From: Escherichia coli
GTDB taxonomy: Bacteria > Pseudomonadota > Gammaproteobacteria > Enterobacterales > Enterobacteriaceae
DNA: 64,000 bases
Assembly: GCF_003018235.1 (NCBI RefSeq)
Contig: NZ_CP027437.1
Direction: 5' to 3' (one strand)
Under the pieces are notes generated by a model. The model saw only the letters and a list, made by a program, of their open reading frames with translations, made no database searches and was not told the DNA's origin. The translations under genes were made by a program, and so were the position numbers. Position 1 is the stretch's first letter, and every line of letters starts with the position of its first letter. Below, in pieces: positions 47,638 through 58,520 of the stretch.

Positions 47638-50199
47638 TTACACCAGACTCTTCAAGCGATAAATCCACTCCAGCGCCTGACGCGGAGTCAGTGAATCCGG
47701 GTCGAGATTTTCCAGTGCTTCGACCGCAGGCGAAGTTTCTTCTGGCACTGACAGCAAAGACATTTGCGTACCATCCACTTGCGTAGCGGCGGCGTTCGGC
47801 GAAATGCTTTCCAGCTCACGCAGTTTTTGCCGTGCGCGCTTAATAACCTCTTTTGGCACGCCCGCCAGAGCTGCAACTGCCAGGCCGTAGCTTTTGCTCG
47901 CCGCGCCATCCTGCACGCTGTGCATAAAGGCAATGGTGTCGCCGTGCTCCAGTGCATCGAGATGCACGTTAGCCACGCCTTCCATTTTCTCCGGTAACTG
48001 GGTCAGCTCGAAATAATGGGTAGCAAACAACGTCAACGCTTTAATCTTATTCGCCAGATTTTCCGCGCACGCCCACGCCAGCGACAGACCATCGTAAGTG
48101 GAAGTTCCACGCCCAATCTCATCCATCAGCACCAGACTGTACTCGGTGGCGTTATGCAGAATATTGGCGGTTTCGGTCATTTCCACCATAAAGGTTGAAC
48201 GCCCGGATGCCAGATCATCCGCTGCCCCTACGCGGGTAAAGATGCGATCGATAGGTCCAATCTCGACTTTTTGTGCCGGTACATAGCTGCCGATGTAGGC
48301 CATCAGCGCAATCAGTGCGGTCTGGCGCATATAGGTACTTTTACCGCCCATATTCGGACCGGTAATGATCAACATGCGACGTTGCGGCGACAGGTTCAGC
48401 GGGTTGGCGATAAACGGCTCATTCAGCACCTGTTCAACCACCGGATGGCGGCCTTCGGTGATGCGAATACCCGGTTTATCAATAAAGGTCGGGCAGGTGT
48501 AGTTCAGCGTATAGGCCCGTTCTGCCAGGTTCACCAGCACGTCGAGTTCCGCCAGCGCGCTCGCGCTCTGTTGCAACGCTTCCAGATGCGGCAACAGCAG
48601 GTCGAACAACTCTTCATAAAGCTGTTTTTCCAGTGCCAGTGCTTTGCCTTTTGAAGTGAGAACTTTGTCTTCGTACTCTTTTAGCTCTGGAATAATGTAG
48701 CGCTCGGCGTTTTTCAGCGTCTGGCGACGCATGTAATTGATGGGTGCCAGATGGCTTTGTCCACGGCTGATCTGAATGTAATAACCATGAACCGCGTTAA
48801 AGCCGACTTTCAGCGTGTCCAGGCCAGTACGTTCACGCTCGCGGACTTCCAGACGCTCCAGATAATCGGTCGCGCCGTCAGCCAGCGCGCGCCACTCATC
48901 CAGCTCTTCGTTATAGCCCGGTGCGATAACACCACCGTCGCGTACCAGCACTGGCGGTGTGTCGATGATTGCTCGCTCCAGCAGATCGCGCAGCTCGGCA
49001 AACTCGCCCATTTTTTCACGCAGCGCCTGTACCGGAGCGCTATCGACATTTTCTAATAGCGCACGCAGCTCCGGCAGTTGCTGGAAAGCGTGACGCATAC
49101 GGGCCAGATCGCGTGGGCGAGCAGTTCGTAAAGCCAGACGCGCCAGAATACGTTCCAGGTCGCCGACCTGACGCAGTACCGGCTGCAGCTCGGCGGTGAA
49201 ATCCTGCAATGCGCCAATAGTTTGCTGGCGCTCAAGCAAGACGCGGGTATCGCGCACTGGCATATGCAGCCAGCGTTTCAGCATACGGCTGCCCATCGGC
49301 GTGACGGTGCAGTCGAGCACAGAAGCCAGCGTATTTTCCGCACCACCCGCCAGGTTCTGGGTGATTTCCAGATTACGACGCGTCGCGGCATCCATAATGA
49401 TGCTGTCCTGCTCACGTTCCATGGTGATGGAACGAATATGCGGCAGAGTCGTACGTTGGGTATCTTTCGCATACTGCAACAGACAACCGGCAGCACAAAG
49501 TCCGCGCGGCGCGTTCTCGACGCCAAAACCGACCAGATCGCGGGTGCCAAATTGCAGATTCAACTGCTGGCGCGCGGTGTCGATTTCAAACTCCCACAGC
49601 GGGCGACGGCGCAGGCCGCGACGGCCTTCAATTAACGACATTTCAGCAAAATCTTCTGCATACAGCAGTTCCGCCGGATTAGTGCGTTGCAGTTCTGCCG
49701 CCATCGTTTCCCGGTCAGCCGGTTCGCTCAGGCGAAAACGACCGGAACTGATATCCAGCGTCGCGTAGCCGAAACCTTTGCTGTCCTGCCAGATAGCCGC
49801 CAGCAGGTTATCCTGACGCTCCTGCAACAGCGCTTCATCGCTGATGGTGCCCGGCGTAACGATACGCACAACTTTGCGCTCAACCGGACCTTTGCTGGTC
49901 GCTGGATCGCCAATTTGTTCGCAGATGGCAACGGACTCGCCCTGATTCACCAGTTTGGCGAGGTAGTTTTCCACCGCATGGTAGGGGATCCCCGCCATCG
50001 GGATCGGCTCTCCCGCCGAAGCACCGCGTTTGGTCAGTGAAATATCCAGCAGTTGCGACGCGCGTTTTGCGTCGTCATAAAACAGTTCATAAAAATCACC
50101 CATCCGGTAAAACAGCAGGATCTCGGGATGCTGGGCTTTCAGCTTGAGATATTGCTGCATCATGGGCGTATGGGCATCGAAATTTTCTATTGCACTCAT
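47638..50199 (-). CDS. mutS: DNA mismatch repair protein MutS
   Basis: 853-aa ORF; Walker [10 protein letters not shown]. Confidence 0.98.
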
Positions 50200-50445
50200 G
50201 GGGTTATGTCCGGTTCCCTGATATTAAATGGGGTGTGATGGTTTTTATTTTCGTTGTAATCACATAAGGCGCACATGATACCGGAGTTAATCATTTCAGG
50301 GGAAGAAGCGAACGGCGAGTTCTTGATGCTGGTTCCGGGAAAGATGCTGTTTTGCAGCTTTTGCGTGATGCTTATGAAGCAAGTACGCAAAATTGTATCG
50401 GTTGGCTAACCCTTCTTCTTTAGAGTCATAGTGCCCTTTAAGATT

Positions 50446-50468
50446 AAGTTGTAATATAAATGCATCTT
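50446..50468. promoter_or_regulatory. Candidate NsrR operator upstream of ygbA
   Basis: aagttgtaata t aaatgcatctt: right half matches the NsrR half-site AAATGCATCTT, left half is a 7/11 match. Confidence 0.45.
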
Positions 50469-50485
50469 AATGAGGTGGAGGCAGC

Positions 50486-50830
50486 ATGTCCGGCAAGCGT
50501 ATCTCTCGTGAAAAACTGACGATTAAAAAAATGATCGATCTTTATCAAGCGAAATGCCCGCAGGCGTCAGCGGAGCCGGAGCATTACGACGCGCTGTTTG
50601 CCTACGCGCAAAAGCGGCTGGATAAATGTGTGTTCGGCGAAGAGAAACCAGCCTGTAAGCAGTGTCCGGTGCACTGTTACCAGCCTGCAAAGCGTGAAGA
50701 GATGAAACAGATTATGCGTTGGGCCGGGCCGAGAATGCTGTGGCGTCATCCGATCTTAACCGTGCGTCATCTCATCGATGACAAGCGTCCGGTGCCGGAG
50801 TTGCCAGAAAAATATCGTCCAAAGAAATAA
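50486..50830 (+). CDS. ygbA: Nitrosative-stress-associated protein YgbA
   Basis: 114-aa ORF with cysteine motifs CPQ...CKQCPVHC. Confidence 0.85.
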   Translation: MSGKRISREKLTIKKMIDLYQAKCPQASAEPEHYDALFAYAQKRLDKCVFGEEKPACKQCPVHCYQPAKREEMKQIMRWAGPRMLWRHPILTVRHLIDDKRPVPELPEKYRPKK

Positions 50831-50868
50831 ATCTGCCGGAGAGCCATACTCTCCGGCAAATAAGGCGT

Positions 50869-51297
50869 TTACGCTTTGGTGGCAATCAGGATGGCTGATG
50901 CTTTGATCAATGCAATAACGCGCGAGCCAGTGGTGAGTTTCATTTCATCCTGACTTTCATTTGTTACCACTGCCACAATTTCAAAACCCGCATCCGTTTT
51001 GATATGGACAGTGGCGTTCACTGCGCCTTCGGTGATTGTCGACACGCTGCCAGCAAACTGGTTGCGAGCAGAGAATTTTAGTCCACAGTCTTCCGTTGCC
51101 AGCGTTACCCACGGGGCTTTAATCAGGGCAATCGCTTCTTTCCCTTTCGCCAGACCCAGCGCTTGCTGGCTGCTGTGAGTCACAATTGCCACCAGCTTTG
51201 CACCACCTGCCAGCGTCAGTTCTACTTCATCATTCACAGCGCCCATTGCTACTGCGCTAACTGTTCCGGTTAATTGATTTCTTGCTGAAACTGCCAT
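50869..51297 (-). CDS. Di-Mop (tandem TOBE) molybdate/tungstate-binding protein, molbindin
   Basis: ORF 50869-51336; start set at MAVSARNQLTG with RBS aaggagg (142 aa); two ~70-aa halves each beginning SARNQ(L/F)(T/A)G...V. Confidence 0.8.
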   Translation of the reverse strand: MAVSARNQLTGTVSAVAMGAVNDEVELTLAGGAKLVAIVTHSSQQALGLAKGKEAIALIKAPWVTLATEDCGLKFSARNQFAGSVSTITEGAVNATVHIKTDAGFEIVAVVTNESQDEMKLTTGSRVIALIKASAILIATKA

Positions 51298-51341
51298 ACT
51301 GCCTCCTTTCATTGAATGTTGATCGAGTATAACCACATCTG

Positions 51342-53420
51342 TTAAATCAATGCCGATTTATCAATTCCAAGCCGCTTCATCCGTGACAGCAGGGTCGTGC
51401 GTTTCAGCCCCAGACGTTGCGCAGCGCCTTTAGGCCCGGCAACCACGCCGTTGGTTTCTTTCAGCACGCGAACAATCAACTGATATTCATCTTCGCCCTC
51501 CTGGGCGACAACCGTTGCGGCAGGCGGCGTTTCAGGCTCCGGTAAAGCAATATCAGGCAATGACAGCTGCAGCACGTTGCCGCGTGTTAGCAATACCGCG
51601 CGCTCAATGACATTTTCCAGTTCGCGTACGTTACCCGGCCACTCCATGTTGCTCAAGGTGCGCAGCGTCTCCGCAGGAATGCTGTCGATATTGCGCCCCA
51701 GACGACGGGCAATTTTGAAGGTAAAGGCTTTCGCCAGCAGCGGAATATCTTCCGGACGCTCGCGTAGTGGCGGCAGGTGGATCGGGAATACATTCAGGCG
51801 GTAATAGAGATCGCTACGGAACTCACGGTCGGCGACCATTTTTTTCAGATCGCGGTTAGTTGCGGCGATTAGACGCACGTCCGTCTGAATGATTTTGTTG
51901 CTGCCGAGACGTTCAAACTCCTGTTCCTGTAATACACGCAGCAACTTCGGCTGTAACTCCAGTGGCATATCGCCCACTTCGTCGAGGAACAGGGAGCTTT
52001 TATCCGCCAGTTCAAAACGACCGATACGCTGGGCGCTGGCACCGGTAAAAGCCCCACGCTCATGACCAAACAGATCGCTCTCCAGCAATCCGGCAGGCAT
52101 TGCCGCGCAGTTCATTTTGACCATGCGGCGATTATTACGCCCACTGAGATTATGGATAGCACGGGCAATCAGCTCTTTACCCGTGCCAGTTTCACCGAGG
52201 ATCAGCACGGTACTGTCACTTTGCGCCACCATTTCAACTTGTTTAAGTACGCTGTACATGGCTTCGCTGCGGCCAATAATCTCGCCAAATTCACTATCAA
52301 CATTGTTGAGCTGCTCGGTCAGGGCGAGGTTTTCATCAACCAGCCGTTCTTTCAGACGATGAATTTCCTGATAGGCGAGGGCGTTATCGACAGCGATTGC
52401 CACACGTTCGGCAATCTGGCGCAGTAAGCTCAGATTGGTAGTGGTAAATACTTTCTCTTCGCATTGCGCCAGTTTCAGCACGCCCAGCATGGTGTTGCCA
52501 GACATCAGCGGTAACAGGCACAAGGTTTGAATCTGGTTGCCCCAGGTGTCGAACAACATGCGTTCATAGGGGGCTAAATCGTCCCGCTCGTGGAGATTAA
52601 TCAACAACATCTCTTTACTTTTGAACACGCGTTCGGTGAGGGTTCCGGCTTCATCGACTTCGCTCTGTTCGTGGGCGGGATGTTGTTTATCAAGATAGTG
52701 AGTGGAGTAGATGTTGAGTTTGTTTTTACGGTGGCTGCGTAAGACAATGCTGATATCGTCAATGTCGAAATAGTAATGGATTTCTTTGGCGACTTCGCTG
52801 ACCAGTTCGTCCATATCCAGGCGGGAAAGCACCGCGTTGGTAATGGCAACCAGGATGCGGAAGTTATCGCGCTCCCGGCATAACAACTCATAGTCGACAT
52901 TATTGACGACGCGGCTCTGGATTTGTTCGGTGACGACAGAAACGATCTGCGTAAATGTTTGCAGACGATTGAACTCTTTTTCGCTCCAGGGGCGATCGTC
53001 ATAACGAATAAATTCACAGCCACCAAAAATATGCCCTTCCGCCGCCAGTGGCATCAGGCAATAGTGACCAAATTTTGGGTATAGCCCACCTGCGGCCAGC
53101 TGCGGCCAGGTTTCACAAAATTCTTCGTAACTGCAATGCAGCGTATCAGGGCGCGACAAAATGCTGCGTACCGGACCGTGTGCCAGAACAGTTTCGTCTT
53201 CATATTTAATGGGGGTGTCTTTTTCACGCGATGCGTAATAAGACGCACGTTGAGTCTGCGCTTGCCACAACACAATAGCCGCGTTGTCGGCGAGCGCAGA
53301 ACGCTTTACCAGTTGCGAAAGAGCCTCACACAGCGAGGCCAGATCGGGCTGCTGCAATAGTGTCCGAGTGATGTCGAACAACCCTTGTTGTCCGAGATCA
53401 CTCATCGGTGTATATGACAT
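51342..53420 (-). CDS. fhlA: Formate hydrogenlyase transcriptional activator (sigma54-dependent)
   Basis: ORF 51342-53456; start set at MSYTPMSDLGQQGLFD; GAF domains, AAA+ sigma54-interaction domain (GETGTGKE, GAFTGA) and C-terminal HTH. Confidence 0.95.
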   Translation of the reverse strand: MSYTPMSDLGQQGLFDITRTLLQQPDLASLCEALSQLVKRSALADNAAIVLWQAQTQRASYYASREKDTPIKYEDETVLAHGPVRSILSRPDTLHCSYEEFCETWPQLAAGGLYPKFGHYCLMPLAAEGHIFGGCEFIRYDDRPWSEKEFNRLQTFTQIVSVVTEQIQSRVVNNVDYELLCRERDNFRILVAITNAVLSRLDMDELVSEVAKEIHYYFDIDDISIVLRSHRKNKLNIYSTHYLDKQHPAHEQSEVDEAGTLTERVFKSKEMLLINLHERDDLAPYERMLFDTWGNQIQTLCLLPLMSGNTMLGVLKLAQCEEKVFTTTNLSLLRQIAERVAIAVDNALAYQEIHRLKERLVDENLALTEQLNNVDSEFGEIIGRSEAMYSVLKQVEMVAQSDSTVLILGETGTGKELIARAIHNLSGRNNRRMVKMNCAAMPAGLLESDLFGHERGAFTGASAQRIGRFELADKSSLFLDEVGDMPLELQPKLLRVLQEQEFERLGSNKIIQTDVRLIAATNRDLKKMVADREFRSDLYYRLNVFPIHLPPLRERPEDIPLLAKAFTFKIARRLGRNIDSIPAETLRTLSNMEWPGNVRELENVIERAVLLTRGNVLQLSLPDIALPEPETPPAATVVAQEGEDEYQLIVRVLKETNGVVAGPKGAAQRLGLKRTTLLSRMKRLGIDKSALI

Positions 53421-53493
53421 TTTGTTCTTCCAGGAAAGCACCGCAAAGCGGTGCAAAAGGTCATTGACTAACTATAGGAGATTTAGAATTTTA

Positions 53494-57213: not shown

Positions 57214-57270
57214 CGGCGACGAAATTCATCTTTAGCTTAAAAATCGCTTTAATAACAATGAATTAAAAGT

Positions 57271-57784: not shown

Positions 57785-57908
57785 GCTGAGGCTTTGCCCG
57801 TTTTGCAGGCGTTACGCCTGTTTGGGGATGGGCGTGTCGATGAGTGTCGAAAATGACATTTCATCGGCATGTTTTCGTCAAAAATGACAATCACCTGAGG
57901 AATGCCTG

Positions 57909-58520
57909 GTGAATCGTTTTGTAATTGCTGACTCCACGCTCTGTATCGGCTGCCACACCTGTGAGGCCGCCTGTTCAGAGACGCATCGCCAGCACGGCCT
58001 GCAATCAATGCCGCGCCTGCGAGTGATGCTCAATGAAAAAGAATCTGCGCCGCAGCTCTGTCACCACTGTGAAGATGCGCCCTGTGCGGTGGTTTGCCCG
58101 GTTAACGCCATCACCCGCGTTGATGGGGCCGTGCAGTTGAATGAAAGTCTGTGCGTAAGCTGCAAACTGTGCGGCATCGCCTGCCCGTTTGGCGCAATTG
58201 AATTTTCCGGCAGCCGTCCGCTGGATATTCCTGCAAATGCCAATACCCCGAAAGCGCCACCGGCACCGCCTGCTCCGGCGCGTGTCAGCACATTGCTTGA
58301 CTGGGTGCCAGGTATTCGCGCGATCGCCGTCAAATGTGACCTTTGTAGTTTTGATGAACAAGGTCCGGCCTGCGTGCGGATGTGCCCGACTAAAGCCCTG
58401 CATCTGGTGGATAACACCGATATCGCCCGCGTCAGCAAACGTAAGCGTGAGCTGACCTTTAACACGGACTTTGGCGATCTCATCTTGTTTCAGCAGGCTC
58501 AAAGTGGAGAGGCTAAATGA
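57909..58520 (+). CDS. hycB: Formate hydrogenlyase 4Fe-4S ferredoxin subunit
   Basis: 203-aa ORF with multiple CxxCxxCxxxCP motifs. Confidence 0.95.
   Translation: MNRFVIADSTLCIGCHTCEAACSETHRQHGLQSMPRLRVMLNEKESAPQLCHHCEDAPCAVVCPVNAITRVDGAVQLNESLCVSCKLCGIACPFGAIEFSGSRPLDIPANANTPKAPPAPPAPARVSTLLDWVPGIRAIAVKCDLCSFDEQGPACVRMCPTKALHLVDNTDIARVSKRKRELTFNTDFGDLILFQQAQSGEAK

Follow-up and report, generated by a model that had tools for sequence, protein, structure and literature searches.

The question raised by this locus is whether ygbA, as it stands in a 64-kb stretch of Escherichia coli DNA (64,000 nucleotides, here called the window), is controlled by NsrR and, if so, which bases carry that control and how they might act. 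NsrR is an Rrf2-family Fe-S repressor; nitrosylation of its cluster destabilises DNA binding, and its target genes are derepressed. A first-pass annotation of this DNA had proposed an NsrR-like operator upstream of ygbA and had described ygbA as a gene regulated by nitrosative stress. The description of the gene agrees with published NsrR-dependent regulation of ygbA in both E. coli and Salmonella. In E. coli, ygbA is regulated by NsrR, and ChIP-chip in K-12 found the ygbA promoter bound by NsrR (PMC5320621). In Salmonella Typhimurium, ygbA mRNA is up 31.8-fold in an nsrR mutant (PMC2884951). Rodionov et al. (2005; PMC1274295) had already named ygbA as NsrR-repressed, via personal communication. 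Based on the analysis described below, we hold with high confidence that positions 50446-50468 are an NsrR operator at the ygbA promoter, which would repress by promoter occlusion and be relieved by NO.

A 1251-bp query taken from this locus (50150-51400) finds a match in 5420 of the 5426 complete genomes of E. coli, with identity up to 99.1%. The open reading frames of mutS (47638-50199) and fhlA (51342-53456) are both on the minus strand. The regulated gene, ygbA (50486-50830, plus strand, 114 aa), was identified by its Pfam domain (YgbA_NO, PF11756, E = 4.2e-41) and by the RefSeq annotation of near-identical genomes. Next to it is a minus-strand gene (50869-51297) for a molbindin-like protein of 142 aa with two TOBE domains (PF03459, E = 1e-34). 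K-12 has the same gene arrangement, except that it lacks the TOBE-domain gene between ygbA and fhlA. About 1888 of the 5420 matching genomes cover at least 80% of the TOBE-containing query, and the presence of this gene alters the last residues of YgbA, which has 114 aa here compared with 117 aa in K-12. A hairpin with a 14-bp G+C-rich stem (50831-50861) lies between the convergent ygbA and TOBE-domain genes, directly after the ygbA stop codon on the plus strand; on the minus strand it is terminator-like, with a T-run after it. From its sequence, it is possible that this hairpin serves as a bidirectional terminator. The nsrR gene is absent from the 64-kb window and is unlinked to ygbA.

The operator is an imperfect inverted repeat of 11-1-11 layout with no strand of its own, AAGTTGTAATA T AAATGCATCTT, which we assigned from the sequence itself, its matrix score, its identity with known sites and its conservation. 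The left half-site, AAGTTGTAATA, occupies 50446-50456 on the plus strand. The right half-site, AAATGCATCTT, occupies 50458-50468 and is read on the minus strand as its reverse complement, AAGATGCATTT. The two are inverted 11-bp half-sites set 1 bp apart, and the spacer is the T at 50457. When compared with the idealised NsrR consensus, the 23-mer matches at 18 of the 22 specified positions. There are 17 nt between the end of the operator and the ygbA ATG at 50486, so that a count downstream from the operator reaches the A of this ATG at the 18th base. The first-pass annotation had put a clear right half and a weaker left half here, 18 bp before the ygbA start, and we read both at the same places and the same distance. 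The box that it drew, 50440-50485, does contain the operator, but is wider than the element proper. A Shine-Dalgarno region, GAGGTGGAGG (50472-50481, plus strand), can be read from the sequence as a G-rich block and is partly conserved in orthologues.

Is this resemblance to NsrR sites greater than expected of such DNA? Table 4 of Mehta et al. (2015; PMC5320621) gives 27 genome-wide 11-1-11 NsrR sites in strain CFT073. We made a symmetrised matrix from 16 distinct ChIP-seq-positive CFT073 sites, with ygbA left out. In a scan of the window with this matrix, the score of the 23-mer was not low relative to the background; at 23.39 bits, it was the top match among 63,978 positions, and it would be the third-highest if placed beside the scores of the 16 training sites. 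The probability of such a score per position is approximately 6e-9 at the composition of the window (about 0.03 expected per 5 Mb), 3.5e-8 when the composition is that of the mutS-ygbA intergenic region, and 2.6e-7 when A+T is set to 70%. In first-order Markov simulations of the intergenic region, none of 5000 sequences reached the score of the 23-mer, and the maximum was 21.4 bits. The near-identical ygbA site of CFT073 also passes the published genome-wide cut-off (PatSer ln P = -16.65 compared with -14.28; PMC5320621). Thus, an NsrR-like operator is indeed found upstream of ygbA, as the annotation had proposed.

The two halves of the operator are not equally close to the NsrR motif. With an 11-bp half-site matrix, the near-consensus right half scored 15.96 of a possible 16.2 bits and ranked first of the 127,980 half-site positions on both strands of the window, whereas the left half scored 7.48 bits and ranked 100 of 127,980. 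This confirms that the left half is the weaker one, as had been noted, although its score is inside the range of the training half-sites.

Two other NsrR-like sequences in the window should be mentioned in their own right. The second-best match, AAATGACATTTCATCGGCATGTT (57851-57873, 17.0 bits), lies between hycA and hycB and stops 35 nt short of the hycB GTG at 57909. CFT073 has the identical sequence as its ChIP-seq-positive 'hycB' NsrR site, which was one of the training sites. A single NsrR-like half-site, AAGATGAATTT (57222-57232, minus strand, 12.95 bits), lies between the divergent genes hypA and hycA, the former of which is a listed NsrR ChIP target in K-12 and CFT073. Separate consensus comparisons for Fur, FNR, CRP, NarL/P, IscR, MetJ, ArcA and LexA gave no convincing fit at the operator.

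The 23-mer is the already published NsrR site at the ygbA promoter, and in this respect the finding is known and ordinary. The CFT073 ygbA site, printed on the other strand as AAGGTGCATTTATATTACAACTT, is identical at 22 of 23 positions; it has a C at 50466 (position 20), where the present sequence has a T. The K-12 site, AAGATGTAATATAAATACATCTT, is identical at 21 of 23 positions and has the 11-1-11 layout, the distance and the ATG in common with the present one. It differs at position 4 (A in K-12, T here) and at position 17 (A in K-12, G here), and both substitutions shift the present site toward the matrix consensus. The three alleles score 23.4 bits (here), 22.4 bits (K-12) and 22.3 bits (CFT073). 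The site is therefore orthologous to one for which there is experimental evidence of NsrR binding or regulation, from K-12 and Salmonella. K-12 and CFT073 reportedly have identical NsrR proteins; the CFT073 ygbA site was without a ChIP-seq peak, and the authors call it a false negative (PMC5320621). The present allele is a minority one: of the 5426 complete genomes of E. coli, 37 carry the 65-mer at 50426-50490 with at least 99% identity, a frequency that is rough because the 65-nt megablast used a word size of 28 nt and matched only 2934 of the 5426 genomes. Together with a best 1.25-kb identity of only 99.1%, this suggests a less-sampled lineage of E. coli as the source of the window.

Conservation defines the limits of the element. 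We used the YgbA protein to scan a single genome from each species and obtained 80 Enterobacterales loci of about 3.3 kb each, from Escherichia, Citrobacter, Salmonella, Enterobacter, Klebsiella, Raoultella, Kluyvera, Lelliottia, Leclercia, Pluralibacter, Rahnella, Hafnia and other genera. The best matrix match in the whole locus was just upstream of the ygbA ATG in 79 of the 80 loci, so that both position and sequence are kept, and the gap between site and ATG was 12-22 nt in all but Hafnia (41 nt). As these sites were chosen by the matrix itself, the footprint in a MAFFT alignment, which is unbiased, is the better evidence. In the alignment of the 130 bp upstream of ygbA (81 sequences), 50446-50468 was the only conserved block; conservation stepped up sharply at exactly 50446 and dropped after 50468. 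The pattern within the block is AA..tGTA..AT..ATGCA.cTT, and its conserved bases are dyad-symmetric, with AA..tG.A on the left and T.CA.cTT on the right. This symmetry counts for an operator because a bare promoter would not need a dyad. The information per position in the ChIP-derived matrix and in the orthologues was only weakly, and not significantly, correlated (Spearman rho 0.27), and we do not count this comparison in favour of the operator.

One locus was an exception. Locus L074, from the metagenome-assembled genome of Enterobacteriaceae bacterium UBA5654, has a degenerate copy, AAGAGGTAACATTCAAGCCTCTT, that scores 2.8 bits but in which TAnnAT, the outer AAG and the outer CTT are retained. 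Judging from this copy, NsrR control may be lost or altered there. Another side observation concerns a small open reading frame in the mutS-ygbA intergenic region (50275-50409, plus strand), which PGAP calls a 'hypothetical protein' in related genomes. The frame of strain N3 has 59 aa and extends through the left half of the NsrR operator; in the window, a TAA at 50407-50409 ends it after 44 aa. Pfam gave no match for it, and the gene call is probably spurious.

The conserved block appears to hold a promoter element as well as an operator. The motif TAnnAT was present at site positions 7-12 in 79 of 80 sequences, as TATTAT (53 sequences), TAATAT (8), TAGAAT (7) or TAAAAT (7), among others. We propose that the TAATAT at 50452-50457 (plus strand) is probably the -10 hexamer, based on this conservation. 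The A at position 11 and the spacer T are conserved at 99-100% across orthologues, whereas the NsrR matrix prefers a T at position 11 and has no information at the spacer. These two bases would be conserved because they are positions 5 and 6 of the -10 hexamer. The same overlap bears on the weakness of the left half, in which 4 of the 11 positions differ from the NsrR consensus and three of these four fall within the probable -10 hexamer. The weaker left half of Escherichia would follow from its having TAATAT where most genera have TATTAT, which puts it farther from the NsrR consensus. Most genera carry a AAGGTGTATTA-like left half, close to consensus, and in most related species this half is not a poor half-site.

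The remainder of the promoter is less distinct. A possible weak -35 element, TAGTGC (50429-50434, plus strand), would be separated from the -10 hexamer by a 17-bp spacer. Conservation of the G at 50431 reaches 91%, and the mean number of matches to TTGACA across the orthologues peaks at a 17-bp spacer (2.8, compared with 0.8-2.1 elsewhere), although the candidate here shares just 2 of 6 positions with TTGACA. A sigma-70 consensus scan of 50150-50900 found no promoter; as a result, the promoter assignment rests on conservation. The predicted transcription start, placed by geometry only at 6-8 nt past the -10 hexamer, would be at 50463-50465 (plus strand), inside the right half-site, and would give a leader of approximately 22 nt. 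Our literature search found no paper pairing ygbA with a transcription start site, and in the supplements of Kim 2012 ygbA is present as an orthologue pair only. Between 49500 and 51500, Rfam gave no RNA family at E <= 1, so there was no RNA element in the leader or the intergenic region. Across species, the footprint can be seen as a clear illustration of how an operator and a -10 element may be fused.

A rival account of the left half is that NsrR binds the right half-site (50458-50468) alone, as a single 11-bp motif, and that the left half is merely the -10 region. The difference between 15.96 and 7.48 bits fits such an arrangement, as does the occupation of the centre of the left half by TAnnAT, and Partridge et al. 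(2009), as they are cited in PMC5320621, proposed that a single 11-bp motif is able to serve as an NsrR site. We nevertheless consider this very unlikely. A1, A2 and G6 of the left half are outside the -10 hexamer, and yet they are 97-100% conserved in the orthologous loci of 80 species and mirror the right half. Moreover, a half that is near consensus in most genera is not what this account leads one to expect, and the published genome-wide scan gives ygbA as a full 11-1-11 site (PMC5320621).

There is almost no chance, in our view, that the conserved block is the ygbA core promoter only (the -10 element, discriminator and start), with its likeness to NsrR sites arising as a by-product of A+T-richness. 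The block is A+T-rich, it is located where a promoter must be, and its TAnnAT is nearly invariant; however, the score of the 23-mer remains improbable even at 70% A+T and was never reached in the simulations. The ATGCA and terminal TT past the -10 hexamer, with the AA upstream of it, make up a dyad in agreement with the NsrR consensus, and NsrR-dependent regulation and ChIP-chip binding have been published for ygbA. That some other regulator binds here, such as the Rrf2 protein IscR (a paralogous Fe-S regulator), NarL/NarP or FNR, is hardly credible, because the IscR type 1 and type 2 motifs match at 16/25 and 16/24 at best and neither is centred on the conserved block, FNR matches at 6/10, and the degenerate NarL/P 7-2-7 pattern, with 11/14 matches at 50413-50428 upstream of the operator, falls in a non-conserved region.

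We therefore return to the full 11-1-11 repeat as the NsrR operator, and propose a model for how it may act. A dimer of the Fe-S-bearing, Rrf2-family NsrR would bind the imperfect repeat, presumably also in the allele present here. As the repeat overlaps the probable -10 hexamer (50452-50457) and the predicted start near 50464, bound NsrR would keep RNA polymerase off the promoter. When NO nitrosylates the cluster, the affinity of NsrR for DNA would fall and ygbA would be derepressed. We infer from the position of the repeat that occlusion of the -10 and start region by the NsrR dimer is the likely mode of repression.

A further idea, which we regard as doubtful, is that the fusion of operator and -10 element holds the left half between promoter strength and repressor affinity, and that natural alleles tune the repression of ygbA. 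If this were true, the tuning alleles might include those at 50466 (T or C) and at 50462 (G or A), and the TAATAT of Escherichia as opposed to the TATTAT of most other genera. It could then also explain why CFT073, with a C at the equivalent of 50466, was without a ChIP-seq peak when K-12 was positive in ChIP-chip. Even so, such fine-tuning would be a small point within a known regulon, not a new system.

The operator marks the ygbA of this window as belonging intact to the NsrR (nitrosative-stress) regulon, and its closeness to consensus at least equals that of the K-12 and CFT073 sites. Beyond correct annotation, this is of little importance. To our knowledge, YgbA has no known biochemical function. 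YgbA has been reported to be necessary for the growth of Salmonella under nitrosative stress, and the link with NsrR is one of the few functional clues for this protein family.

Finally, the ygbA operator can be compared with those of ytfE and hmp, the strongest in the enterobacterial NsrR regulon, with which it has the 23-bp inverted-repeat architecture in common. In the work of Bodenmiller and Spiro in 2006, the ytfE repeat reportedly overlaps the -10 element. The ytfE site is an almost perfect palindrome, whereas the ygbA left half has the four departures from consensus described above. The right halves are more alike: those of ytfE and hmp in CFT073 are identical to the right half here, AAATGCATCTT (PMC5320621). 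The motif of Rodionov et al. (2005), gATGyAT-N5-ATrCATc (PMC1274295), agrees with 50448-50466 at 12 of its 14 specified positions. It describes a shorter core of 19 bp, and the conserved outer AA and TT of the present operator belong to the later 11-1-11 definition.
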